From an uncultured Gammaproteobacteria bacterium (GTDB lineage Bacteria > Patescibacteriota > Patescibacteriia > CAYYDP01), in NCBI GenBank assembly GCA_964470645.1, contig CAYYDP010000016.1:1-27323 (forward strand): a stretch of DNA of 27,323 nucleotides. The letters run 5' to 3'. A program made the translations under genes and the position numbers. Below are positions 2 through 26,863 of this stretch, piece after piece (position 1 is the first letter of the stretch; each line of letters opens with the position of its first letter). Under the pieces are notes generated by a model. That model made no database searches. It was given only the letters and a program-made list of their open reading frames with translations, and was not told the DNA's origin.

Positions 2-595
2 AATATTGTATACGTCGGAATAAGTCTTATTTGTCTTGTCTATTTCGGTTACGGTCTTCATCAAAAGCTCTCTCTTTGGCGGCAGTACCAAAATTCAAAT
101 TATCAAATTCTCAATCAATTATATGAGATCAATGACGGGAGGAAAATCATTATGGTTGGACTCCCTGATTCGTATCAAGGCGTCCAGGGGTTTCGAAATG
201 GAATTGAAGAAGCATACCGTCTTTACTATGGAGAGGAAATTGATATTGTCAGAATTCCCGTGTATACGATTGACGGCGGAGAAGTTGGTTATGTGTTTCA
301 GACTACCCACTACCCACTGCCCGCTACCCACTACTCTGCGGCTGATGGTTTTGATGAGACGGTTCCGAATCAAGTCTTTTTAAAGACTAAAGATAAATCG
401 CTTCGATTGACGGGGGAGAAAGAGTATTCCGATGCGTATATTGATGTACGTTTTTTCCGTTGGCATTATGATATTGGTCGTTCTGACGGCGCCACAATTA
501 TCCTCAAGGGCGATGCTGCACAGGATATTATGAGGGGAACGTCCAGGCTGCTGATCTATGATGGTGGGCACGTCGCTGATCTGGCTGTGCTGTGA
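2..595 (+). CDS. hypothetical membrane-anchored protein, 5' end upstream of the window
   Basis: Same frame as track ORF 152..595, but I read the frame as open from nt 2 with no stop. The added residues NIVYVGISLICLVYFGYGL look like an N-terminal membrane anchor. Stop TGA 593-595. No family recognised. Confidence 0.5.
   Translation, partial: NIVYVGISLICLVYFGYGLHQKLSLWRQYQNSNYQILNQLYEINDGRKIIMVGLPDSYQGVQGFRNGIEEAYRLYYGEEIDIVRIPVYTIDGGEVGYVFQTTHYPLPATHYSAADGFDETVPNQVFLKTKDKSLRLTGEKEYSDAYIDVRFFRWHYDIGRSDGATIILKGDAAQDIMRGTSRLLIYDGGHVADLAVL
302..336. repeat. degenerate heptanucleotide tandem array (actaccc actaccc actgccc gctaccc actactc) inside the CDS
   Basis: Five head-to-tail 7-nt units read directly. 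They encode THYPLPATHYS. The unit resembles the complement (TATACCC) of the GGGTATA arrays at 10020 and 11497. Confidence 0.7.
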
Positions 596-6900: not shown

Positions 6901-9156
6901 ATGGGTTACTACGCGTTTTCAGCTTTATTTAATTTTTTGTTAAGTGTGTTTTTGGGTTGGTTCGTGTTCCGGACTAATCAACGTTCTTCACTGCATAAAA
7001 ATCTTTTTATTCTCTGCCTGAGCGCTGGGTGGTGGTCGTTTTTTTATTTTCTTTGGCAGATGTCTGTAACAGAAGTGTGGGCACTGTGGTGGACCAGACT
7101 CTTGATGCTGGGCGCGATCTGGGTCGCATATTCTTACGTGAAGGTTGTAGCATTGTTTTTGGAACGCGAAAAAGAACTTCGAAACGCTTTGCGGCTTGCG
7201 TTTGGATTGGGGGTCGTGCTGAGCGTACTCGTATACACTCCCTATATGGTTTCCAACGTGGAGCCGCTCGCGGGATTTCTATTTTGGCCGAAGCCGGGTC
7301 CGGCGTATCACGCGTTTTTGTTCTGGTTCGTTTCGTTCATGGTGTACGGGTGCTACTTGTCGTATCAAGGATTAAAACGCGCGACGCCGCTCATGCGGAG
7401 CAGGCTTCAGATTATGCTCGCGGGCATGGCGTTGAGTATCGTCGCGGGATCAACCAATTATTTTCTTTGGTATGATATTCCCATAAAACCCTACGGAAAT
7501 ATTTTGGCTTCGGTGTACGTCGCTTGCGTGGTATACGCGATTGTGCGCCACCACGTTCTTGACATCCGGGTGGTACTGAGAAATTCATACGTGTATCTTT
7601 CATCGCTCGCGAGCCTGCTCGTAGTCGCGGTTCTGGTTGAGCGCGGTCTGTCCCTGTCATTTTCGAGCGCACCAGAGTTTCTTCGCGAATTTTTTTCGTT
7701 TGCCGTCGCGATTGTGTTGTTTCCGACCATCAAAGATTGGTTTTCACAAACGGCAACAAAATATTTTTTTTCCTCGCTGTACGATACGAGCAAGGTTATC
7801 GGGAGGCTGGGTCAGTCGCTTCGTTCCATCCTCGACACCAAAAAGCTTTTTGAAGTTCTCGATTCAACGTTTACCTCGGTGTTTCATCCAAAAGGTTTTT
7901 GTGTGTTGGCGTATGACGGGAAGCACAAAGCGCTTGTCGTTTCTTATAATCGGGACGTTGATCTCAGGGGACTGAGTGAGTACTCTGTGTCAAAGCGTCT
8001 TGAACAGAATATTCTTCGACAAAACACGGTTTTGGCGGTGGAAACAATGAGCGAGGAAGAAGAATATCTGAAATTGTACAAAAAAGAGTTCGCGTTGCTG
8101 AGCTCTATGGGTGTTGATATGGTCGTTCCGCTTGTTGCGAAAGAACGTTTAATTGGTTTGATTTTGCTTGGAAGGAAAGAAAACGGGGACGCGTACTCGA
8201 CTCAAGACATTGGCGCGCTGGACATTATTCGTTCACAGGTCGCGATCGCGTTTGAAAATGCGCAGTTATACCAGGAATCATTGGCGTTTGGTGAAAAGTT
8301 AAAGATTGAAGTTGAAAACGCGACTCGTGAGCTTCGTATTGCTAATGACAAGCTCAAACAACTCGATCAGGCAAAGACGGAGTTTTTGTCTATCACGTCG
8401 CATCAGCTCCGGACGCCGCTTACTGGAATTAAAGGGTATTTGTCCATGATGATCGAGGGAGATTTTGGGAAGTTTTCTGATCAACAGGAAGAGACCGTAA
8501 AACGGGTTTCGGCGGAAGTCGACCGGCTCGCCCGCATGGTACAGGTATTTTTAAATGTTTCGCGAATTGAATCGGGACGATTGATGGTCGCTCGGTTGAA
8601 TTTTAATGTCGCCGAACTTATTGGAACGGTCATCAAGGAGCTCAAACCCATAGCAGAAAAAAAACAGCTTGAATTGTCGTATGTTGGTTCGGAGCATCTT
8701 CCGTTTGTTGGCGATTCGGATAAATTGAAGGACGTTGTGATGAATTTGGTTGATAACGCGATTAAATACACACCATCCGGAAAAGTATGGGTTGAAGCAG
8801 GTATGCAGAAAAATGGAGATATTTGGATTAACGTGAAGGACACGGGCGTGGGAATAGATCCTGCTGAGACCGGGAAGTTGTTTGAGAAATTTTCTCGCGC
8901 CAAAGGAATTGCCGAAGTTTCAGCTGAAGGATCGGGTCTCGGGCTCTTTATCGTTAAGAAGATCGTGGAAGCCCACGGTGGGACTGTGTCTGTGGCGAGC
9001 GAGGGTCACGCAAGGGGTGCAACATTTACGTGCGTCCTGCCGAAGTATGAGGAGAAACAATTCAGTGAAGCGGCTGATCAGAGTACTCCAAAGCTTTTAA
9101 GTTCAAAGAAAAACAAGATGGTAAACATGAAGGTCATGAAGGTATTGAAGAGATAG
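6901..9156 (+). CDS. sensor histidine kinase (N-terminal multi-TM sensor, GAF-like, HisKA, HATPase_c)
   Basis: About 290 aa of hydrophobic helices come first, followed by a GAF-like middle region. H-box SITSHQLRTPLTGIKGY, N-box VDNAIKYT, G1 DTGVGI, G2 GSGLGL. The track start is TTG 6874, and the first in-frame ATG (6901) is used here. Confidence 0.9.
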   Translation: MGYYAFSALFNFLLSVFLGWFVFRTNQRSSLHKNLFILCLSAGWWSFFYFLWQMSVTEVWALWWTRLLMLGAIWVAYSYVKVVALFLEREKELRNALRLAFGLGVVLSVLVYTPYMVSNVEPLAGFLFWPKPGPAYHAFLFWFVSFMVYGCYLSYQGLKRATPLMRSRLQIMLAGMALSIVAGSTNYFLWYDIPIKPYGNILASVYVACVVYAIVRHHVLDIRVVLRNSYVYLSSLASLLVVAVLVERGLSLSFSSAPEFLREFFSFAVAIVLFPTIKDWFSQTATKYFFSSLYDTSKVIGRLGQSLRSILDTKKLFEVLDSTFTSVFHPKGFCVLAYDGKHKALVVSYNRDVDLRGLSEYSVSKRLEQNILRQNTVLAVETMSEEEEYLKLYKKEFALLSSMGVDMVVPLVAKERLIGLILLGRKENGDAYSTQDIGALDIIRSQVAIAFENAQLYQESLAFGEKLKIEVENATRELRIANDKLKQLDQAKTEFLSITSHQLRTPLTGIKGYLSMMIEGDFGKFSDQQEETVKRVSAEVDRLARMVQVFLNVSRIESGRLMVARLNFNVAELIGTVIKELKPIAEKKQLELSYVGSEHLPFVGDSDKLKDVVMNLVDNAIKYTPSGKVWVEAGMQKNGDIWINVKDTGVGIDPAETGKLFEKFSRAKGIAEVSAEGSGLGLFIVKKIVEAHGGTVSVASEGHARGATFTCVLPKYEEKQFSEAADQSTPKLLSSKKNKMVNMKVMKVLKR

Positions 9157-9203
9157 CTTAAGGTAAGTTTTTCGCGGTTGGATTGGAAATGTCCGATTCA
9201 AGA

Positions 9204-11777
9204 TCACTTTTTTTCAAATATGAAAACACTATTTGATCCAATTTGTTTCACGTCTGCCAGATCAGCAAGCGTTATTTTTGATTGGGGAGAGATTTTCCAG
9301 TAATCATTTAGCACAAGATAGAGTTCATTGATCTCGTAGGTCTCGAAAATTTCATCAATGAGTTTTTGTGATGGCTCTTTGGTCATTTGTAAGTAATACC
9401 TATGCGCTTGAGACGAGATGGGAATGGAGTAGAAAAATTGAGGGTTTAGTGTTGAGGGCTTTGAGTATAGATTAGTTGAGGAGTCATATCTGCGTTGATC
9501 CGCGTTTTTATCCGCGCCTGCCCCGTAGTGTTCCCATACTTGGGATCTACTACCGGGGTTGATCCGCGTTTTGACGTATTGTGAAAATCCAAACTGATCG
9601 AGAGCTGCTGCGCCGACTGATTGGTTGGCAAGGACGAGATATGGCTTTGAAGCCCGTTCTTCGATTTGTTGGACAGTAGCGAGATCGTCTTGTGAAGTGA
9701 GGTATCCTTTAAAATTCACGAACCGGTCAGAGTGGGGGAATTGAAGGTAAATGTTTGAGACAATAAGAACTGAAAGGAAGATGAAAAAAGAAAGATGGAA
9801 AGTTTTTTTTGATCCATGATCCCCGCCTCGACTCGCTCGCTCGTCGGGCGAGGCGGGCATGATCCATGATCCATGATTGAGGAATAACGGCCATAGAAAT
9901 ACAAGCGAGATTGAGAAGAGGCGCGTGAAGAGTTGGATGTGTTCGCCCGCGGTGACATTTGGTTGGAGATAGAATAGCACGATGAGGGATGATGCAAAGA
10001 TTGAGAGGAAGGAAAGAAGATAGGGTATAGGGTATAGGGTATAGGGTATAGTGAAACTTTCACCATTCCCATGTTCTTCTTCGTCATTCCCGCCCCGACG
10101 CTTTGGTCGGGATAAACTCCAGCGGGAATCCAGAAAAGAAAAGATTGAAGTCTTTTTGTTTTGGTTGTTTACTCCGACGCTTCGGCACCGACGTTCCGAC
10201 CCGAAGACGGCGTCGGAATCGGAGTCCCGACCCGAAGACGGCGTCGGGGTTTCTGGATCCTCGATCAAAGCCGAGGATGACGGGTCTGTTGGTTTTTGTG
10301 TTTTTTTAATTTTTTGAACAGTCGCAAACAAGATAACAATGAAAAACAATAGATAGTAGTTCTTACCAAAAAAATGAATAAATGAAAGTGGGTCGGTATA
10401 GCGGATCCAACTTGGGGCAACGATAGATTTGATTGCGCTGTACGCTTCGGGGTTGAGGTTGATCGAAGTTATTGCAAATTGAGAGTCGAGATTATTATTG
10501 AGGATGAGTGCGCCGGGAATTGCAATTGTGGATGCAATGAAAGCAATGATTACAAGGAATAGGAGCATTGCCTGAACAATGAGTCTTCCAAGCGCTACGT
10601 ATTCGTCGCTTTGAAGTTTCGTGATCGTGGTTTGTGAAATTGAATACATGATGTTCCAACCCAAGAAAACGAATGCGGCAATTCCGGGGAAGGGATGGCA
10701 GAGAAAGGAGGCGAGGGCAAGGAGAGAATAACGTATAAAGGTGTAACGAGACCAATTTCCCACTCGGAAACTCGGCTCGCCAAAAGCGACCAGTTTCGTC
10801 TGCTCTGCCTCAGCGATCACTTGATCACTCGCAGGCGAAACCTGCCTCAAACAGTCCTCGTGGGGAAATTGTCTCACTCCTCCTTTCTCTTGCCAAACGA
10901 GCAGAAGCAAAAGGAGGAGGAAAAAGATTCCTAACGATTGTGGTACAGTCGTCGTAAGAATGGAGAACGGGAGAAGAAAGAAGAAGGCGAGAGATTTATT
11001 TCCAAATGTTTTTTTGAGTAGCCACGGGATAGCGAGGATGACGAGAATGGGTAGGAGGAAAAAATTGATCTGTTTCACTCGAAGTTGTGTTAACGTTGAA
11101 ATGACAGACACAAGTCCGTACTCACCCGAGTAAAGTATGGTTTTTGGTTGGATGTGACCCTCTGTGACAATCGTTTGCTCTGCTGCTCGGTGAACGAAAG
11201 GATCGTAGTCGGTTCCGATGGGGAAGAGGACAGGGAGGATGAGAAAGATTAAAGGGAAGATGATACAAGATAGAAGATACAAGACGCTGTTTGATTGTAA
11301 TTTGGTAATCAGGTAATTAGGTAATTGAGTGATTTGGAATCTTTTATCGAGTTTCACTGATGATGGTAGGTACGTAATGAACACAAGAATCAGTACGGCT
11401 GGTAAGAACCAATTGGGAAGAATGGACCAGACCAGGGGGCTGGATGATGTTGTTTGGAAGTGAGAATAGAAAAAGGCGATGATCAGAACTGCAAGAGGGT
11501 ATAGGGTATAGGGTATAGGGTATAGGTATTTTCTGAACTTCCTCCGTGTCATTGCGAGAAGGCTTTGCGACGAAGCAATCTCATTCTGCCGATGACCGGC
11601 ATTTGAGGTCGTCACACTCATTGCTACTTCGCTCGCGATGACAGTTTTTTTAGCTATCAGTGTTAGTATGATTGAAAGTCCAAGTACTAGCCAGGAAGTG
11701 AGCGTGGTTACTTCAAAAAAAACCACAAGAACACTCGAGAGAATCGTCAGTAAGGAAAGAAAACTGATGTATAGCAT
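9204..11777 (-). CDS. large polytopic membrane protein with a C-terminal soluble domain, interrupted in frame by repeat elements
   Basis: A single 857-aa ORF with many hydrophobic helices. Low-complexity, non-membrane-like stretches coincide exactly with the palindromic elements and heptamer arrays listed separately. No family recognised; a GT-C-like or other membrane enzyme is only a guess. Confidence 0.6.
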   Translation of the reverse strand: MLYISFLSLLTILSSVLVVFFEVTTLTSWLVLGLSIILTLIAKKTVIASEVAMSVTTSNAGHRQNEIASSQSLLAMTRRKFRKYLYPIPYTLYPLAVLIIAFFYSHFQTTSSSPLVWSILPNWFLPAVLILVFITYLPSSVKLDKRFQITQLPNYLITKLQSNSVLYLLSCIIFPLIFLILPVLFPIGTDYDPFVHRAAEQTIVTEGHIQPKTILYSGEYGLVSVISTLTQLRVKQINFFLLPILVILAIPWLLKKTFGNKSLAFFFLLPFSILTTTVPQSLGIFFLLLLLLLVWQEKGGVRQFPHEDCLRQVSPASDQVIAEAEQTKLVAFGEPSFRVGNWSRYTFIRYSLLALASFLCHPFPGIAAFVFLGWNIMYSISQTTITKLQSDEYVALGRLIVQAMLLFLVIIAFIASTIAIPGALILNNNLDSQFAITSINLNPEAYSAIKSIVAPSWIRYTDPLSFIHFFGKNYYLLFFIVILFATVQKIKKTQKPTDPSSSALIEDPETPTPSSGRDSDSDAVFGSERRCRSVGVNNQNKKTSIFSFLDSRWSLSRPKRRGGNDEEEHGNGESFTIPYTLYPIPYLLSFLSIFASSLIVLFYLQPNVTAGEHIQLFTRLFSISLVFLWPLFLNHGSWIMPASPDERASRGGDHGSKKTFHLSFFIFLSVLIVSNIYLQFPHSDRFVNFKGYLTSQDDLATVQQIEERASKPYLVLANQSVGAAALDQFGFSQYVKTRINPGSRSQVWEHYGAGADKNADQRRYDSSTNLYSKPSTLNPQFFYSIPISSQAHRYYLQMTKEPSQKLIDEIFETYEINELYLVLNDYWKISPQSKITLADLADVKQIGSNSVFIFEKK
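9811..9877. repeat. GC-rich hairpin flanked by GATCCAT heptamer repeats, inside the CDS
   Basis: A 9-bp stem, cccgcctcg (9822-9830) pairing with cgaggcggg (9849-9857). gatccat units lie at 9811, 9861 and 9868. It encodes SWIMPASPDERASRGGDHGS between two TM segments. Confidence 0.75.
10020..10052. repeat. (GGGTATA)x4 heptanucleotide tandem array inside the CDS
   Basis: Perfect units at 10023, 10030, 10037 and 10044. They encode IPYTLYPIPY on the minus strand. Confidence 0.9.
10083..10281. repeat. composite ~200-bp GTCAT...ATGAC palindromic element inside the CDS, homologous to the intergenic element downstream of clpB
   Basis: 10083-10131 (gtcattcccgc...gcgggaatcc) matches 26676-24. The A-rich/T-rich core resembles 26786-26835. 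10255-10281 (ggatcctcgatcaaagccgaggatgac) matches 26836-62. It also carries a duplicated hairpin, ccgacccgaagacggcgtcgg x2. Confidence 0.8.
11497..11529. repeat. (GGGTATA)x4 heptanucleotide tandem array inside the CDS, second copy
   Basis: Perfect units at 11497, 11504, 11511 and 11518. They encode YLYPIPYTLYP. Confidence 0.9.
11547..11643. repeat. 97-bp TGTCAT...ATGACA palindromic element inside the CDS
   Basis: tgtcattgcgag...cgaagcaat on the left versus attgctacttcgctcgcgatgaca on the right. It encodes TVIASEVAMSVTTSNAGHRQNEIASSQSLLAMT after the first two TM helices. Confidence 0.75.
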
Positions 11778-11827
11778 ATTCTTATTCTTATACTATCACC
11801 AACCCGGAGAAAGCAGAATATGGGGAA

Positions 11828-11854
11828 TTGGCACTCTTGACATGAGAGTGCCAA
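11828..11854. promoter_or_regulatory. CIRCE operator (HrcA binding site)
   Basis: TTGGCACTC-N9-GAGTGCCAA is a perfect 9-bp inverted repeat with a 9-nt spacer. It differs from the TTAGCACTC-N9-GAGTGCTAA consensus by one position per arm and lies 17 nt upstream of the hrcA ATG. Confidence 0.85.
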
Positions 11855-11865
11855 TTTTTTATTAT
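11837..11865 (+). promoter_or_regulatory. candidate sigma-70-type promoter overlapping CIRCE
   Basis: TTGACA (11837-11842, inside the CIRCE spacer), a 17-nt spacer, then TATTAT (11860-11865). The -10 element ends 6 nt before the hrcA ATG, implying a leaderless or near-leaderless mRNA. Confidence 0.5.
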
Positions 11866-11871
11866 TGACTC

Positions 11872-12573
11872 ATGACCAAGGCACAGAACAATTTAAACGA
11901 ACGAAAATCTGCTCTGTTAAGCCAAATTATTGAAGAGTTTGTTGCCTGTGCCGAACCGGTAGGATCACGTTTGATTGTGGATAAGTACGAATGGGATGTG
12001 TCCCCAGCAACGGTGCGTGCTGAAATGTCGGAGCTCGAAGAAGGGGGATATACAACACACCCCCATACGTCTGCGGGAAGAATGCCGACTGAAAAAGGGT
12101 ATCAGTGGTATGTTTCTTCGCTGGATATTCCTTCCATTCGCGTTTCCTCGAGGTTGAACCAGCGATTGGAAGAGTCGGCATCGAGCGCGGAGGGACAAGA
12201 AAAGATTAAAAAGCTTGCGCGTGAGATTGCCGAAATTGCTACAAACGCCGTCGTGGTTGGTTTTGGTAAACGTGATAGCTACTACACTGGTCTTTCGTAT
12301 CTGTTCAGTCATCCCGAATTTAAGGATATCAATCTTGTGAGATCGTTTTCCGAGATTCTTGATCAGCTTGATGAGGCGTTGAATGGACTTGTTGAATCTT
12401 CCGACGAAACCGCATCCGTGGCGATTGGGAAGAATAATCCGTTTGGTTCCGAATGTTCGTTTGTTTCGAGCAAACTCAAGGGGGAGGAGTGTGTGTTCGG
12501 AATTCTGGGACCGCTGCGAATGGATTACAGACGAAATATTGGATTAATAAATTGGATGAGAGAAAATGTATAA
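11872..12573 (+). CDS. hrcA: heat-inducible transcription repressor HrcA (short form, 233 aa)
   Basis: N-terminal wHTH LNERKSALLSQIIEEFVACAEPVGSRLI...SPATVRAEMSELEEGGY, C-terminal motif GILGPLRMDYRRNIGLI, a CIRCE site immediately upstream and grpE downstream. Confidence 0.85.
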   Translation: MTKAQNNLNERKSALLSQIIEEFVACAEPVGSRLIVDKYEWDVSPATVRAEMSELEEGGYTTHPHTSAGRMPTEKGYQWYVSSLDIPSIRVSSRLNQRLEESASSAEGQEKIKKLAREIAEIATNAVVVGFGKRDSYYTGLSYLFSHPEFKDINLVRSFSEILDQLDEALNGLVESSDETASVAIGKNNPFGSECSFVSSKLKGEECVFGILGPLRMDYRRNIGLINWMRENV

Positions 12574-13938: not shown

Positions 13939-13961
13939 TAGAAATGAGGGGGATGTGATTT

Positions 13962-14135
13962 AAACCCGAAGCACGAAGTACGAAATACGAAAAAAGAATG
14001 CAAAAATCAAATCTCAAAAGTCAAAATGTAAATGCAAAGTGCAAAATTCTCCATTTTGAATTATCATTTTGATATTTGATGTTTGAATTTTGATATTGAG
14101 TTTGTTTCGAGTTTCGATATTCGAATTTCGGATTT
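13962..14135. repeat. 174-bp heptad-periodic palindrome, copy A (paralog at 17491-17657)
   Basis: Nearly identical to copy B. 5' arm cccgaag cacgaag tacgaaa tacgaaa ... tcaaaag tcaaaat. 3' arm attttga ... gtttgaa ttttgat ... gagtttc gatattc gaatttc. It ends 9 nt before ATG 14145. Confidence 0.9.
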
Positions 14136-14144
14136 TTATCTCTT

Positions 14145-17189: not shown

Positions 17190-17492
17190 ATGTCCAACAA
17201 CAATCAACAACAAATTCAAATCCAGGCAAAGCCGGAAGAACTTCAAGGTCATTATTCGAATTTTTTTCAGGTGACGCATTTGAGCCGCGAAGAATTCTTG
17301 CTTGATTTTTTGTTTTTAGACGGTCCGCGCGGTGTGGGAGCGTTATCGAGCAGAGTCATTGTAAGCCCCCAGCAGGCGAAGCGAGTGCTTGCCGCGCTGC
17401 AGGAGAATGTAAAGAATTATGAAGAAAAATTCGGCGCGATTGAAATGGGTCAGAAGCAGGAGGAGAAGGAAGTAGGGTTCAAAATACAATAA
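17190..17492 (+). CDS. DUF3467 family protein
   Basis: MSNNNQQQIQIQAKPEELQGHYSNFFQVTHLSREEFLLDFLF...SRVIVSPQQAKRVLAALQENVKNYEEKFG matches my recollection of the DUF3467 pattern. The track start at 17094 runs into the palindromic element, so ATG 17190 is used. Confidence 0.75.
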   Translation: MSNNNQQQIQIQAKPEELQGHYSNFFQVTHLSREEFLLDFLFLDGPRGVGALSSRVIVSPQQAKRVLAALQENVKNYEEKFGAIEMGQKQEEKEVGFKIQ

Positions 17493-17657
17493 ATCCGAAG
17501 CACGAAGTACGAAATACGAAAAAGAATGCAAATCTCAAATCTCAAAAGTCAAAATGTAAATGCAAAGTGCAAAATTCTCCATTTTGAATTATCATTTTGA
17601 TATTTGATGTTTGAATTTTGATATTGTTTCGAGTTTCGATATTCGAATTTCGGATTT
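17491..17657. repeat. 167-bp heptad-periodic palindrome, copy B (paralog of 13962-14135)
   Basis: It differs from copy A by about 3 substitutions, a 1-nt A-run indel and a 6-nt indel in the 3' arm. It starts on the DUF3467 stop codon and ends 7 nt before the dnaJ ATG. Confidence 0.9.
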
Positions 17658-17664
17658 TATAGTT

Positions 17665-18917: not shown

Positions 18918-19769
18918 ATGATACGAATCTTGGACAATTGGGTTACATCCGGATACGCGAATATGATTGGTAAAAAATATCTGAAGGTCTTCACTAACGC
19001 CATTCAAGAAACCCTTCAGTACCGGGTGAATTTTTTATTTGGGCGAATTACTAATTTAGTGGTACTTGTGTCAATGTATTTTCTTTGGATGAATGTGTTC
19101 GTGGATCCCGGCACGCAGTTTTTCGGATTTTCCAAGCCGGATATTATCACATACGTTCTTGGGGCTAGTGTTGTGTATGCGATTGTGTTTGTCCAATCCA
19201 TGAACCCAATCGCGTTTGAGATCGCCGATGGGGACTTGTCCAATTATCTCGTGAAACCGATAAGCTATTTCAAATATTGGTTTTCTCGAAACAACGCGGA
19301 GCGCGTTCTGCTCCTGGTCATGTCGTTTGTTGAAATTGGAATTATTTCATTGTTCATAGATCGTTCTATGATTGTGATTCAATCGGACGTTAGTGTCTTA
19401 TGTGTTTTTGTGGTTTCGGTGGTTTTGTCTGTTGTTACCTATCAGCTGATCGATTTTTTACTTGGGACAACCGCGTTTTGGTTCTATAAATCATTTGGTC
19501 CTCGATTCGCTATCCAAACCACGGTGATGCTTGCGTCTGGGTATTTGTTTCCGATGAGCGTTTTACCGACGTGGCTACGGACCCCACTTGAATTGACCCC
19601 GTTTCCTTACTTAGTAAATTTTCCGGTGCAGTTGTATTTGGGGAAACTGTCAGCGGAACAAATCGTGACAGGGTTTACCATTTTGGCGTGTTGGATTGTT
19701 GGACTGTTTGTCGTGTATCGTGTCACCTGGATGAAAGGGCTGAGGATGTTTGAAGGGGCGGGGAGGTAA
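18918..19769 (+). CDS. ABC-2 family transporter permease (COG4587/COG3694-type, DUF990-like)
   Basis: N-terminus KKYLKVFTNAIQETLQYRVNFLFG followed by about 6 TM helices. It is paired with a second permease and a COG4586-like ATPase nearby. An alternative ATG lies at 18963. Confidence 0.8.
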   Translation: MIRILDNWVTSGYANMIGKKYLKVFTNAIQETLQYRVNFLFGRITNLVVLVSMYFLWMNVFVDPGTQFFGFSKPDIITYVLGASVVYAIVFVQSMNPIAFEIADGDLSNYLVKPISYFKYWFSRNNAERVLLLVMSFVEIGIISLFIDRSMIVIQSDVSVLCVFVVSVVLSVVTYQLIDFLLGTTAFWFYKSFGPRFAIQTTVMLASGYLFPMSVLPTWLRTPLELTPFPYLVNFPVQLYLGKLSAEQIVTGFTILACWIVGLFVVYRVTWMKGLRMFEGAGR

Positions 19770-19850
19770 CCTCCCCTAACCCCTCCTTCATAAGGAGGGG
19801 ACAGTATAAAATGTTCTCCCCTTACGAAGGGGAGAATGTAAGAGGGGTTA
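19767..19850. repeat. 84-bp structured element, copy 1 (two stem-loops closed by an outer stem)
   Basis: It starts on the TAA stop. SL1 cccctcctt-cat-aaggagggg, SL2 ttctcccctt-acg-aaggggagaa, outer pairing aacccct/aggggtt. It ends 7 nt before ATG 19858. Confidence 0.85.
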
Positions 19851-19857
19851 TGGATTT

Positions 19858-20643
19858 ATGAAACGTTATTTGAGCCTATTTCTGCAACTTGCGAACATGG
19901 CGTTTGGGAGCGCAACGTCTTCGCAACTTGATTTTTGGTCATTTATCATCGGCAAGCTCATTCGGATGGCGATCTGGCTCACGTTGATTTATTCACTCTT
20001 CAATTTTACTGATTCTGTTGCCGGATTTTCCAAAGGACAGATGGTCATGATGTACGCGACCATGAACTTGATTGATGTGGTGGTTCAGGTGTTGTTTTAT
20101 CGAGGGTTTCAGGCACTGCAACACGAGGTGCGAAAAGGGAATTTTGATTTTGTACTCACGAAGCCGGTAAATCCCATCGCGCTTGTTGCCTTTCGATACG
20201 TGGATCTTATGGATATTGTAACCCTACCATTTTCCATTGCAGTGTTGGTCTATGGAATTTCTTTGGTTGGGAGCGTTTCGTTGATGAATGTTGTCTTATA
20301 TGCGCTTCTTGTTATGAATGGGCTTGTTATTATTTTAGGGTTGTGTTTGATTTTCGGAGGTTTGACGTTTTACACCACGCAGATGGAAAATATTTGGTGG
20401 TTCTACCGCTACGGAATGCAGGTAGCTAGGTTTCCGGTTGATATTTATTCTGGGTTTTTTAGATTTTTCTTTACCTATGTCCTACCCATGGCGTTTATCG
20501 TAACCTTTCCTGCGAAAGCGTATTTTGGTGTTCTTTCATTGCCGTTTTATGTGTATTCATTTATTCTTTCAGTGGGTTTGGTGTTGTTCGGAGTTTGGTT
20601 TTGGAACCACGCGGTCGCCAGGTACCAAAGCGCAAGCTCCTAA
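19858..20643 (+). CDS. ABC-2 family transporter permease, second subunit
   Basis: 261 aa with about 6 TM helices and the same architecture as the preceding gene. Confidence 0.8.
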   Translation: MKRYLSLFLQLANMAFGSATSSQLDFWSFIIGKLIRMAIWLTLIYSLFNFTDSVAGFSKGQMVMMYATMNLIDVVVQVLFYRGFQALQHEVRKGNFDFVLTKPVNPIALVAFRYVDLMDIVTLPFSIAVLVYGISLVGSVSLMNVVLYALLVMNGLVIILGLCLIFGGLTFYTTQMENIWWFYRYGMQVARFPVDIYSGFFRFFFTYVLPMAFIVTFPAKAYFGVLSLPFYVYSFILSVGLVLFGVWFWNHAVARYQSASS

Positions 20644-20727
20644 CCTCCCCTAACCCCTCCTTCGTAAGGAGGGGACAGTAGGAAAGAGTGTCTCCCCCTT
20701 ACGAAGGGGGAGATGCAAGAGGGGGTT
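20641..20727. repeat. 87-bp structured element, copy 2
   Basis: taacctcccctaacccctccttcgtaaggagggg...tctcccccttacgaagggggaga...agagggggtt. It again starts exactly on the TAA stop of the permease. Confidence 0.85.
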
Positions 20728-24099: not shown

Positions 24100-26664
24100 A
24101 TGGATCCGAATAAATTAACTCAAAAATCGGCAGAAGGCTTGAATGCCGCGGTTCAGGAGGCGGCACGATTGTCGCATCAAGCGGTTGCACCGCTTCATTT
24201 GTTAACGGCGTTATTGGAACAGCAGGATGGACTAGTGCCTGTATTGATTCAAAAACTTGGGAAAAACCCAAGCACAGTTTTTCAAGTTGTCCAGGATGAA
24301 TTAAACAAACTACCCAAAGTCTCTGGAACTTCCGGTCAGCACATGACGCAAGAACTCGCGAAGGTATTGGACGAAGCAGAACGTGAGATGAAAAACATGC
24401 AAGACGAGTATGTGAGCACGGAGCATCTCTTGTTGGGATTATTGCATGATAAAGATGTAAAAAAGATTCTCGACGTTTCAAAAGACAAAGTGTTGGAAGC
24501 TTTGAAGAGTGTGAGAGGGAACCAGCGGGTCACGAGTCAGAATCCAGAAGGGACATTTCGAGCGCTCGAAAAATACACCATTGATTTCACGAAACTAGCG
24601 AGTGAGGGGAAGATTGATCCTGTTGTTGGACGAGATGAAGAAATTCGTCGAGTTGTCCAGATTTTGTCACGCAGAACAAAAAACAATCCTGTGTTGGTCG
24701 GAGATCCTGGAGTGGGGAAGACCGCGATTGTGGAAGGGCTCGCGAAAAAAATTGTTGACGGTGATGTGCCCGACAGTGTGAAGAACAAAAAATTATTATC
24801 GCTTGATTTGGGAGGACTCCTTGCCGGAGCAAAGTACAGGGGTGAGTTTGAAGAACGATTGAAAGCGGTGATTAAAGAGGTTGAGGAATCGGCCGGGAAT
24901 ATTATTCTCTTCATCGACGAGCTTCATACGATCGTAAGAGCCGGGGGAGCAGAGGGAGCGGTTGATGCTGGAAATTTGTTGAAACCAGCGTTGGCGCGCG
25001 GAAAGATGCGAACCGTCGGAGCGACAACGCTCAAAGAATATCGTCAGCATATTGAAAAAGATGCTGCGTTTGAACGCAGGTTCCAACCAGTTGAAGTTGG
25101 TGAGCCGTCAGTGAAAGACACCATTTCCATTTTGCGGGGGATCAAGGAAAAATATGAAGTGCATCATGGCGTGAAGATTCTTGATAGCGCGATTGTTGCC
25201 GCGGTTAACCTATCTTCTCGATACATTGCTGATCGATTTCTCCCTGATAAGGCAATTGACGTTTTGGATGAAGCTGCGTCGACGCTCAGAATTGAAATTG
25301 ATTCCAAACCAACAGAAATTGACAGGCTTCATCGTCAGATCCGCCAGCTTGAAATTGAAAAAGAAGCATTGAAGAAAGAGAGCGAAGAACCCTCCAAAAA
25401 GCGCCTCCAGGAACTTGACCGTGAGCTTGCTCAGCTCAAAGAAGAAAATACACAGCTAGAACTCCATTGGCAAAATGAGAAAAAACACATTGATGAGATT
25501 AAGAAACTGAGTAAAGAAATTGAGCGATTGCGAGAAGATGCTGTACAGGCCGAGCGCAGGGGAGAGCTTCAGAAGGTTGCGGAAATCTCTTATGGTACGA
25601 TCCCTGAACGAGAAAAGAAGATTGAAAACGCAAAAGCAGAATTAGCTGTTGTACAAAAAGATCGCAAAATGCTCAAAGAAGAAGTCGGAGAGGAAGATAT
25701 TGCTAAGGTTGTTTCACGGTGGACCGGAATTCCCGTCTCCAAGATGGTTTCGGAGGAGTCCGCAAAGCTTGCGATGATGGAAGAGGCGCTACATGCTCGC
25801 GTTGTCGGGCAAGACGTCGCGGTTAAGGCGGTTGCGGCTGCTGTGAGGAGAAGTCGCGCTGGGATTCAAGAGGAGAATCGTCCGATTGGCTCGTTCATTT
25901 TCCTTGGACCAACCGGAGTTGGAAAAACGGAATTAGCCAAGGCTCTTGCGCATTTCTTGTTTAACAATGAAAAAATGTTAGTCAGAATTGACATGAGCGA
26001 GTACGGCGAGAAACATTCTGTCGCTCGATTAGTTGGCGCGCCTCCGGGGTATGTGGGGTATGAAGAAGGAGGGCAGTTAACAGAGTCTGTCAGGCGACAT
26101 CCATATTCCGTCGTTCTTCTCGATGAAATTGAAAAAGCACATCCTGATGTGTTTAATGTGTTGTTGCAGGTTTTGGATGATGGGCGTTTGACCGATGGAA
26201 AGGGCAGAACCGTTGATTTTAAAAACACGGTCATCATCATGACATCCAATTTGGCATCGCAAGAAATTGCTGAACACGCAGGGGATGCTAAAAAGCAAGA
26301 ACAGGCTGTACAACTCGTGTTGAAAAAAGCGTTCAAGCCAGAATTTTTGAATCGTGTGGATGATATTATTATTTTCCAACCACTTGATAAGGCGATGATG
26401 AAGAAGATTGTGGAGATTCAGCTTGAAGCAGTTGCCGAGCGGTTGAAGCAAAAAGAAATCACCGTTGAATTTAGCGACGAAGCAAAAGACTATTTGTCTG
26501 AACAAGGATTTGACGAAGTCTTCGGCGCGCGCCCCTTGAAGCGGTTGATTCAAAAAGAAATTTTGGATGAATTATCGTTGCAGATTATTGAAGGGAACAT
26601 ATCAGAAGGGAGTAAGCTAAAAATTGATGCTGGAAAGGGGAGTCTAAAAGTCCATAAAGTCTAA
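24100..26664 (+). CDS. clpB: ATP-dependent chaperone/disaggregase ClpB
   Basis: 854 aa with a Clp N domain, NBD1 GDPGVGKT, a long middle coiled coil, NBD2 GPTGVGKT and the sensor motif GARPLKR. Confidence 0.97.
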
Positions 26665-26675
26665 AAGTCCATAAA
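26642..26675. repeat. perfect 17-bp tandem duplication (gtctaaaagtccataaa x2) spanning the clpB stop codon
   Basis: Copies at 26642-58 and 26659-75. The clpB TAA (26662-64) lies in copy 2, and the last residues LKVHKV are encoded by the repeat. Confidence 0.9.
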
Positions 26676-26724
26676 GTCATTCCCGCCCCGTATGAAACTA
26701 CGGGGTAAACTGCAACGGGAATCC
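26676..26724. repeat. nested stem-loop unit gtcattcccgc...gcgggaatcc (paralog of 10083-10131)
   Basis: Outer stem attcccg/cgggaat. Inner stem ccccgta/tacgggg, where the paralog has cccgac/gtcggg, which is also self-complementary. Confidence 0.8.
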
Positions 26725-26756
26725 AAACAACATAAATCAAAAAACAAAAAGATATA

Positions 26757-26863
26757 TGTCATCCTGAAGTTTCATTCAGGATCCAGAACAAAAAAAGAAA
26801 AGACTGAATTCTTTTTGTTTTTGTTTTTTATTTCTGGATCCCGTGTCAAAGCACGGGATGACA
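26757..26863. repeat. 107-bp TGTCAT...ATGACA palindromic element
   Basis: gtcatcctgaa-gtttca-ttcaggatcc, an A-rich then T-rich core, then ggatcccgtg-tcaaag-cacgggatgac. The two terminal stem-loops are in inverted orientation. Confidence 0.85.

Follow-up and report, generated by a model that had tools for sequence, protein, structure and literature searches.

Repeat elements within one open reading frame

We analyzed a 27,323-nt stretch of metagenomic DNA (positions 1–27323; hereafter the window) in which one membrane-protein gene of an uncultivated, ultra-small bacterium carries palindromic and tandemly repeated elements inside its coding sequence. The host gene, open reading frame (ORF) 9204..11777 on the minus strand, is a single unbroken frame of 857 codons from its ATG and encodes a polytopic membrane protein of an uncharacterized Patescibacteria family. 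Repeat and hairpin DNA makes up ~610 nt, or 24%, of this ORF, including two segments beyond those listed in an earlier, sequence-only reading of the window, and has a GC content of 54%, against 42% in the rest of the ORF. Every insert is stop-free in the coding frame.

The two large inserts, a 95-nt palindrome and a 199-nt composite element (Table 1), are inverted pairs of hairpins of the form GTCAT-stem-loop-stem-ATCCAG(AA), with small GC hairpins nested inside. As DNA, the palindrome folds at −21.9 kcal/mol (z = −3.4), and the halves of the composite fold with z = −3.0 and −3.1. The sequence-only reading had proposed at least five in-frame repeat insertions; the features lie where it placed them, give or take 1–3 nt, with the frame intact, and its 97-bp palindrome (11547–11643) proves to be 95 nt long. 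What did not stand is that all five are insertions, as the heptamer arrays are not fresh arrivals and the 9811–9877 loop is barely longer than that of the ortholog (see below). The weaker inverted repeat that it had placed around 10800–10860 does not fold significantly (z = −0.9); it does fall within a genuine lineage-specific insertion of 19–22 aa, possibly a decayed element.

A hairpin of another kind, CCCCGTAGT..ACTACCGGGG at 9521–9558, occupies the 49-nt segment of the 9494–9572 insertion, the only element in the window flanked by 15-nt direct repeats. Its type, CCCCGTAG..CTACGGGG, forms a separate small family, found elsewhere in 0.93 Mb of fetched loci only in the first loop of an orthologous gene (P0003) and at 26686–26705 of the window. 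Perfect stems of ≥7 bp were not enriched within the ORF (3 observed vs. 1.6 expected), a census that is uninformative because the hairpins of the elements are imperfect.

All inserts lie between Kyte–Doolittle hydrophobic clusters and encode hydrophilic peptide (mean hydropathy: composite, −1.25; hairpin loop, −1.26), in agreement with the loop positions and atypical hydrophilic peptides proposed from sequence. An AlphaFold2 model of the protein, weak overall (mean predicted local distance difference test, pLDDT, 56.9), bears out the placement: the stretches with pLDDT < 50 (residues 43–71, 81–90, 137–161, 300–342, 494–581, 638–659, and 735–779) match the insert segments and the loop in which the closest ortholog, P0002, carries an element of its own. 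Structured segments of this kind might be removed after transcription or translation, as introns or inteins are. Beyond their structured nature, nothing favors such removal, which we regard as extremely improbable: across 9000–12000, no Rfam match was obtained at E ≤ 1 save one chance microRNA match far below its gathering score, and at 35–200 nt the elements fall below the size of group I/II introns or of inteins. Precedents of the Rickettsia palindromic element (RPE) type are, moreover, read through.

Table 1. Repeat features of the host gene (in gene order) and of the related intergenic spacer; TM, transmembrane
Feature	Position	Composition	Protein or remark
95-nt palindrome, GTCAT...ATGAC	11548..11642	inverted pair of GTCAT modules	encodes aa 45–77, VIASEVAMSVTTSNAGHRQNEIASSQSLLAMT
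Palindrome, left module	11548–11582	GTCATTGCGAG..GCAATCTC	
Palindrome, central hairpin	11587–11601		
Palindrome, right module	11614–11642	GTCATCGCGAGCGAAGTAGCAATGAG	opposite strand
(GGGTATA)4.4 array	11496..11526	100% perfect	encodes YPIPYTLYP directly before TM helix
Short arrays	11262..11326	GATACAA ×3.3 and GTAATTAG ×3.8	loop aa 151–172; missed by the sequence-only reading
Lineage-specific loop insertion, 19–22 aa	10776..10880	weak inverted repeat	aa about 300–335
Composite palindromic element, 199 nt	10083..10281		~68 extra aa; pLDDT below 50 over aa 494–581
Composite, left module	10083–10135	GTCATTCCCGC-nested hairpin (10094–10111)-TAAACTCCAGCGGGAATCCAGAA	
Composite, spacer	10136–10170	A-rich / T-rich	
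Composite, nested GC-rich hairpin block	10171–10249	79 nt, with 31-nt tandem duplication	
Composite, right module	10250–10281	TTTCTGGATCC-hairpin-GGATGAC	
(GGGTATA)4.6 array	10020..10051	100% perfect	encodes IPYTLYPIPY directly before TM helix
GC-rich hairpin in heptamer array	9811..9877	37-nt hairpin (9821–9857) within (CATGATC/GATCCAT)n; z = −2.8	encodes ..GSWIMPASPDERASRGGDHGS..
Insertion with direct repeats	9494..9572	15-nt repeats GTTGATCCGCGTTTT (9494–9508, 9558–9572) around 49-nt segment	missed by the sequence-only reading
Intergenic copies of the composite's modules	26676..26862		missed by the sequence-only reading
Intergenic module A	26676–26724	nested variant	39/54 identical to 10083–10134
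Intergenic module B	26758–26788		
Intergenic module C	26832–26862		

The host protein had zero matches in Pfam, NCBIfam, or, by profile search, the PDB. Foldseek returned GT-C-type matches (DPY19, STT3) that were non-significant (E = 0.2 or worse), and no fold is claimed. A distant homolog is housed in a glycosyltransferase/CDP-alcohol phosphatidyltransferase cluster; a role in envelope glycoconjugates is plausible.

We assign the contig to Patescibacteria because its DnaK is 74–78% identical to those of named Uhrbacteria, Kerfeldbacteria, Kuenenbacteria, and Parcubacteria, its nearest named relatives. GC skew is positive in every 1-kb interval of the window (0.08–0.32), whichever way the genes point, and the plus strand contains 26.6% G and 18.6% C. 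Some Microgenomatia show a comparable one-sided G/C disparity (PMC7143001), and the skew gave a first guess of Microgenomatia origin; this was rejected, the DnaK relatives being instead Parcubacteria/ABY1-type Patescibacteria.

Orthologs, gene integrity, and the open frame

A homolog search covering 5.8 billion proteins found eight relatives of the host protein. The closest, P0002 (748 aa), is 58% identical in the multiple alignment (by BLASTP, 44% identity over 58% of the query); P0003 has 712 aa and the other six have 587–714 aa. The gene order around P0002, recovered from two metagenomes, is syntenic with the window: histidine kinase–gene–hrcA–grpE–hsp20–dnaK. Conserved blocks flank every insert, and the insert flanks are collinear and in frame with P0002. 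Conservation is strongest in the TM and C-terminal blocks, and the conserved motifs are intact.

In this alignment the odd segments resolve as lineage-specific loop insertions, absent from P0002 and from the seven further homologs; they are not native sequence shared by the family, and the gene is neither a set of separate ORFs nor a frameshifted pseudogene but one conserved, syntenic ORF. The ~68 aa of the composite are missing in 8/8 homologs. Relative to P0002, in protein and codon-level comparison, the 95-nt palindrome accounts for a 17-aa excess, segment 10776–10880 for 19–22 aa, and an excess of ~31 aa near the C terminus includes the 9494–9572 insertion. The 9811–9877 loop is variable and just a few residues longer than in P0002.

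The orthologs carry elements of their own. P0002 has an independent copy of this element type, a palindrome of ~105 nt, in a different loop, corresponding to aa 151–172 here; it ends ...CTGGATTCCCGTTTTCACGGGAATGAC and encodes ...FLDSRFHGND. In the first loop, P0002 has a different small module, GTCATTCCGG-loop-CCGGAAT, which starts at the same codon as the 95-nt palindrome (K-T-V-I...), and P0003 has yet another hairpin, CCCCGTAGT..ACTACGGGG.

These comparisons bear on two alternatives. One is that the gene is a decaying pseudogene whose insertions mark lost selection, as its unusually high load of foreign sequence (24% of the ORF) might suggest. We consider decay very unlikely, given 857 codons without a stop or frameshift, intact conserved motifs with conservation strongest in the TM and C-terminal blocks, inserts that all keep the frame, and an ortholog that is also intact, in two samples, with an insertion of its own. 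The other is that repeats were misjoined into the gene during assembly; the contig belongs to a metagenome-assembled genome (MAG), and repeats are known to cause chimeras. The collinear, in-frame flanks, the same phenomenon in independent ortholog assemblies from two samples, and its occurrence in an isolate genome (Rickettsia tamurae, below) leave such an artefact with very little credibility.

The open frame can be weighed against chance. On base composition only, all 216 insert codons would be free of stops with a probability of ~2e-5, and the five segments of the sequence-only reading with one of ~1e-3 (0.951^140). That reading had judged 450–500 nt of stop-free palindromic DNA unlikely by chance, which the naive odds support, but these odds overstate the surprise because single modules are themselves stop-free in most frames: among the matches listed, 79–95% of 98 copies are open in 5/6 frames, and only the frame with TGA in ..ATGAC is usually closed. 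Elements made of a module pair and an A/T spacer leave fewer frames open than single modules do; the number of open frames among the six is one for the intergenic 105-nt copy, one for the 95-nt palindrome (the coding frame), and three for the composite. Survivorship under purifying selection—for the right frame, a frame-keeping length, and a loop position—is a sufficient explanation.

Module class and in-frame precedents

Copies of the composite's modules also occur outside genes in the window (Table 1). Modules B and C are a clean inverted pair spanning 105 nt (26758–26862) that is identical to the composite at 34/45 positions of the A/T-rich spacer and 29/34 of the right module. Between the intergenic and composite right modules, the termini are conserved and the stems show compensatory changes (e.g., CCTCG..CGAGG vs. 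CCCGTG..CACGGG).

These termini match a known consensus. In Neisseria, the NTS consensus, CGTCATTCCCGCGMAVGCGGGAATCYRG, contains dRS3; such hairpins are cut as single-stranded DNA (ssDNA) by small GIY-YIG nucleases (SsnA), a degenerate Ssn-related motif (SRM) has been defined, and SRM-rich genomes include Rickettsia and Wolbachia (PMC11893778, 2025). The published SRM pattern, HGTCWYN(0-2)YYVSBRHN(0-5)WNVSBRGN(0-2)RNCYNB, is strictly matched at 26834–26863 of the window and in the insert of P0002 (locus L001, 10499–10526), where 0.06 matches are expected. The in-ORF modules retain GTCAT..ATCCAG at their ends; with loops that are long or nested, they fall outside the strict pattern. Throughout, the modules are oriented hairpins with conserved flanks, 5′ GTCAT and 3′ ATCYRG, and compensatory changes maintain the stem.

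To define the distribution of the class, we scanned one genome per species for the pattern TTCTGGATCC-N12-16-GGATGAC, which gave at least 127 matches in at least 120 stretches. At least three further complementary pairs are present in 95/127 of the matches listed, where four pairs by chance would occur in 1/256. The hosts among the matches listed comprise Proteobacteria, Rickettsia, Wolbachia, Coxiellaceae, Omnitrophota, Zixibacteria, Dehalococcoidia, and at least about 15 Patescibacteria loci. Pairing is a general feature of the architecture: again among the matches listed, an inverted GTCAT module lies no more than 170 nt away from 46/98 modules. Strongly enriched variants in SRM-bearing loci include GTCATTGCGAG modules (13 observed vs. 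0.4 expected) and GTCATTCCCGC modules (33 observed), and the nested TAAACTCC variant is also found.

GIY-YIG (PF01541) mini-ORFs adjoin modules in three loci, including one of Paceibacterota (L020). In an Omnitrophota MAG (L011, 6687–7558), at least seven GTCATTCCCGC / GTCATCCCCGC module pairs surround a 97-aa GIY-YIG ORF (7257–7520), which is the NTS-ssn-NTS arrangement of Neisseria; ssn genes (cd10448) typically have the motif on their flanks. The window's modules thus share with the NTS/SRM system their termini and hairpin geometry, their multi-copy, oriented, and often paired state, and, in some loci, adjoining GIY-YIG mini-genes; they differ in that the published account treats the repeats as gene-flanking, discusses no in-frame copies, and mentions Patescibacteria 0 times (PMC11893778). 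On these sequence comparisons, the elements appear to belong to the pan-bacterial NTS/dRS3/SRM hairpin class. The sequence-only reading had held that such behavior was undescribed for this kind of element or organism; the element is of a known class, and the host phylum alone appears new.

In-frame copies of the same class occur elsewhere. In Rickettsia tamurae dnaE, GTCATTCCCGCGAAAGCGGGAATCCA...TTCTGGATCCCCGCTTTCGCGGGGATGAC lies in frame inside the HHH_6 domain, encoding ...CHPRESGDPEK...MDSRFRGND... and stretching the match to the 90-position HHH_6 model over 148 residues. The peptide type is shared: MDSRFRGND in R. tamurae, FLDSRW..GGND in the window, and FLDSRFHGND in P0002. A Pseudomonadota mnmE carries one module in frame, encoding SSSRGLTAGSRK. 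A close parallel to the window gene is a Wzy_C (O-antigen-ligase-like) membrane gene (L068, 2305–3564; MAG "bacterium casp150-mb.315", unclassified bacterium); a GTCAT pair (VIPHLMRDPGI...NQVQDDK), one unpaired module (LSSQTRFGIQK), and two arrays of heptamers, TTCCCTA (encoding FPIPY) and AATTCGT ×4.7, all sit there in frame. Because copies stand in frame in R. tamurae dnaE, mnmE, and the Wzy_C gene, in-frame behavior is a property of the element class.

RPEs are described as interspersed palindromes of 100–150 bp that occur between genes and in frame within them, where they add peptides at the surface or in loops (Ogata et al. 2000, 2002; PMC10969869, PMC1779305), and protein-coding palindromic repeats are likewise reported for Wolbachia (Ogata et al. 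2005, via PMC1779305). The window elements resemble RPEs in size (95, 105, and 199 nt), in copy number, and in having one intergenic and several in-frame copies. The precedent drawn by the sequence-only reading is borne out and exceeds analogy, because the same module pair, GTCATTCCCGC..GGAATCCA / TTCTGGATCC..GGATGAC, stands in the window and in frame in R. tamurae dnaE. The differences are that the host belongs to Patescibacteria rather than Rickettsiales and that a single gene has gathered several distinct elements along with nested hairpins.

Neisseria intergenic mosaic elements are similarly small, mosaic or nested, and bounded by terminal inverted repeats. The window elements share these traits with MITEs (miniature transposable elements with inverted repeats), together with their non-autonomous state and absence of coding capacity of their own; they differ in that the GTCAT pairs lack flanking direct repeats and that no transposase or related insertion sequence lies in the window. 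Intragenic bacterial MITEs such as ERIC/IRU, with occasional in-frame fusions to host ORFs, have been described (Delihas 2007, via PMC10969869). In the literature searched, no paper combined palindromic and in-frame elements with Patescibacteria or linked palindromic elements, Rickettsia, and GIY-YIG; the only two papers mentioning both MITEs and Patescibacteria were off-topic.

A further alternative is that the segments are native variable loops whose hairpins arose by local slippage or duplication, outside any dispersed family. Some features do look locally duplicated—the heptamer arrays, the 31-nt tandem duplication (10179–10240), and the 63-nt direct-repeat unit at 9494–9572—and the inverted repeat near 10800 is not significant. 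The modules, however, match the intergenic copy on the contig, the other loop of the ortholog, and more than 90 copies in other phyla, and the CCCCGTAG hairpin is common to the window and the P0003 locus, so that a purely local origin is highly improbable.

The contig carries other repeats. The spacer that separates hrcA from the membrane gene holds a perfect inverted repeat, TTGGCACTC-N9-GAGTGCCAA (11828–11854), that looks like a CIRCE operator for HrcA. A heptamer-rich repeat of ~176 nt stands upstream of both dnaK and dnaJ (13961–14136 and 17490–17658; pieces 90–100% identical) and may be a shared regulatory region; the copy upstream of dnaJ is 88.8% identical to positions 2917–3088 of L126, from a relative with 95% DnaK identity. 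Two consecutive spacers after ABC-2 permease genes (19760–19836 and 20641–20713) contain the same strong hairpin pair, CCCCTCCTTC(A/G)TAAGGAGGGG and TCTCCCC(C)TTACGAAGGGG(G)AGA, which is another small repeat family or paired terminators. A 17-nt unit, AGTCTAAAAGTCCATAA ×2.2 (26641–26678), covers the stop codon of an 854-aa ORF (24100..26664) and abuts intergenic module A.

Heptamer arrays and interpretation of the locus

The tandem arrays follow a pattern of their own. Under strict criteria (at least 2.6 copies; periods 5–12 nt), 7 is the sole enriched tandem period in the window and in loci L001 and L003, with diverse units; the arrays number 8, 4, and 4, respectively, and half of them fall in the host gene, which is 12.6% of the sequence. 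No period-7 arrays occur in two loci of distant homologs (L124, L125), and 0.83 Mb of unrelated loci contains about twelve-fold fewer per kb. Within the host gene they lie at 9858–9877, 10020–10051, 11262–11284, and 11496–11526. The orthologs have arrays in the same loops with different units: AACATGA, ATTTTCA, GCTCTGC, and ACAGACG in P0002 and CAATTTT and ATTTGTC in P0003, with the GCTCTGC array in the same loop as the 9811–9877 hairpin and array.

The two (GGGTATA)n arrays are not fresh insertions, because P0002 has degenerate heptamers at both sites: the 11496 array aligns gap-free with degenerate units, and the 10020 site holds ~3 degenerate units in a segment 5 aa shorter. They are therefore old tracts that were kept or re-homogenized. 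Positions 10022–10051 and 11496–11525 are 100% identical across 30 nt though 1.47 kb apart, and each tract stands directly upstream of a TM helix and, in the orientation of the gene, 21–31 nt downstream of one of the large palindromic elements; the identity could stem from gene conversion or from parallel expansion. We also considered that arrays are generated beside hairpin modules. The arrays of the window do lie 3–30 nt from elements, but across all loci 3/32 arrays are within 40 nt, against 3.5% expected, and the idea was rejected; the proximity in the window arises because arrays and elements share permissive loops.

Heterocystous cyanobacteria carry heptanucleotide STRR tandem repeats. 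With these and with contingency loci the window shares 7-nt tandem units, not divisible by 3, inside a surface-related gene; it differs from the STRR case in phylum and unit sequences, and its tracts are short (3–4.6 units). In the literature searched, no paper joined heptanucleotide repeats to the CPR (Candidate Phyla Radiation). Elsewhere in the window, an ORF of 147 aa (152..595, plus strand) with no Pfam match holds an in-frame (ACTACCC) ×4.7 array at 302–334 (QTTHYPLPATHYS), the unit of which resembles degenerate units at the ortholog's array sites (CACTACC).

Like phase-variable contingency loci, then, the host gene has tandem repeats in its coding sequence with a unit that is not a multiple of 3, and it might be an adaptive hypervariable locus in which modules and frame-shifting arrays, more than tolerated junk, are maintained in envelope-protein loops for phase or antigenic variation, or to modulate the recombination of incoming DNA by way of an Ssn-type nuclease. 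The lone enriched period of 7, the concentration of half the arrays in the host gene, the different units in the same loops of orthologs, the perfect and identical pair of (GGGTATA)n arrays, the frame shift that a 7-nt unit entails, and a second envelope gene, the Wzy-like gene of L068, that combines modules and arrays are all consistent with such a role. In Neisseria, moreover, genes for surface proteins have NTS repeats clustered around them, and transformation is modulated by SsnA (PMC11893778). Against it, the tracts are short, reaching about 4.5 units at most, several of the arrays are far from the 5′ end, arrays do not generally lie beside modules, and degenerate period-7 arrays (69–88% matches) are also frequent in intergenic window DNA, so that the host gene's share may just reflect its unconstrained sequence. 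Maintenance for variation, although compatible with insertion into permissive loops, is in our judgment unlikely.

Taken together, the locus is very probably one in which hairpin repeats of the SRM class, along with small GC hairpins, entered permissive loops of a membrane-protein gene that is functional, and are read through as disordered peptide, as RPEs are. Under this reading, the unconstrained loops of a functional polytopic membrane gene would accumulate small, non-autonomous hairpin repeats, the two large inserts being MITE-like inverted module pairs with nested small GC hairpins. Members of the class are recognized as ssDNA hairpins by small Ssn nucleases of the GIY-YIG type, which cut them; such a nuclease may be involved in this genome too. 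Normally, insertions that land in coding DNA are lost; those seen survive because of their loop position, their frame-keeping net length, and GC-rich stems that are nearly stop-free in most frames. Transcription and translation presumably turn the inserts into loop peptides that are hydrophilic and disordered, as for the Rickettsia elements, and the heptamer arrays would be a second, lineage-wide process in which slippage-type period-7 microsatellites form in the same permissive loops.

Several observations weigh against this interpretation. The contig is a metagenome assembly, and no ssn/GIY-YIG gene is seen in the 27-kb window, a difference from the NTS/SRM system, or in the ortholog loci. 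By direct reading of the sequence, the SRM pairs have no flanking target-site duplications. The nearest ortholog is only 58% identical, leaving no close relative for an empty-site comparison, and the contig of the relative with 95% DnaK identity (L126) stops short of the gene. Since the first-loop module shares its start codon in both orthologs, some of the insertions, as aligned, may be ancient and remodeled rather than recent. Across bacteria the modules are mostly intergenic: in the fetched loci, the median spanning open frame is 109 codons, vs. 398 at random positions.

A broader proposal, which we regard as unlikely, is that in-frame palindromes would be no peculiarity of Rickettsia but an aspect of a pan-bacterial system whose GTCAT hairpin motifs and Ssn-type GIY-YIG nucleases would seed short insertions that are preferentially retained in envelope-protein loops of small-genome, host-dependent lineages (Rickettsiales, Patescibacteria); together with frame-shifting arrays, they might be a built-in means of diversifying surface loops or of switching them on and off.

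In-frame RPEs and intragenic MITEs are already well known, and the value here is in the phylum extension, the link between RPEs and the SRM class, and the heptamer oddity. Selfish DNA within proteins, a phenomenon recognized in Rickettsia 25 years ago, now reaches the CPR, with sequence-level evidence of in-frame palindromes built from the hairpin modules lately tied to Ssn ssDNA nucleases. The period-7 arrays, recurring in the host gene across three lineages, present a small and concrete oddity that can be tested. For CPR annotation, the finding explains odd hydrophilic, low-confidence segments (...LLAMT, ...RGND...) in conserved proteins and urges caution before such genes are called pseudogenes.

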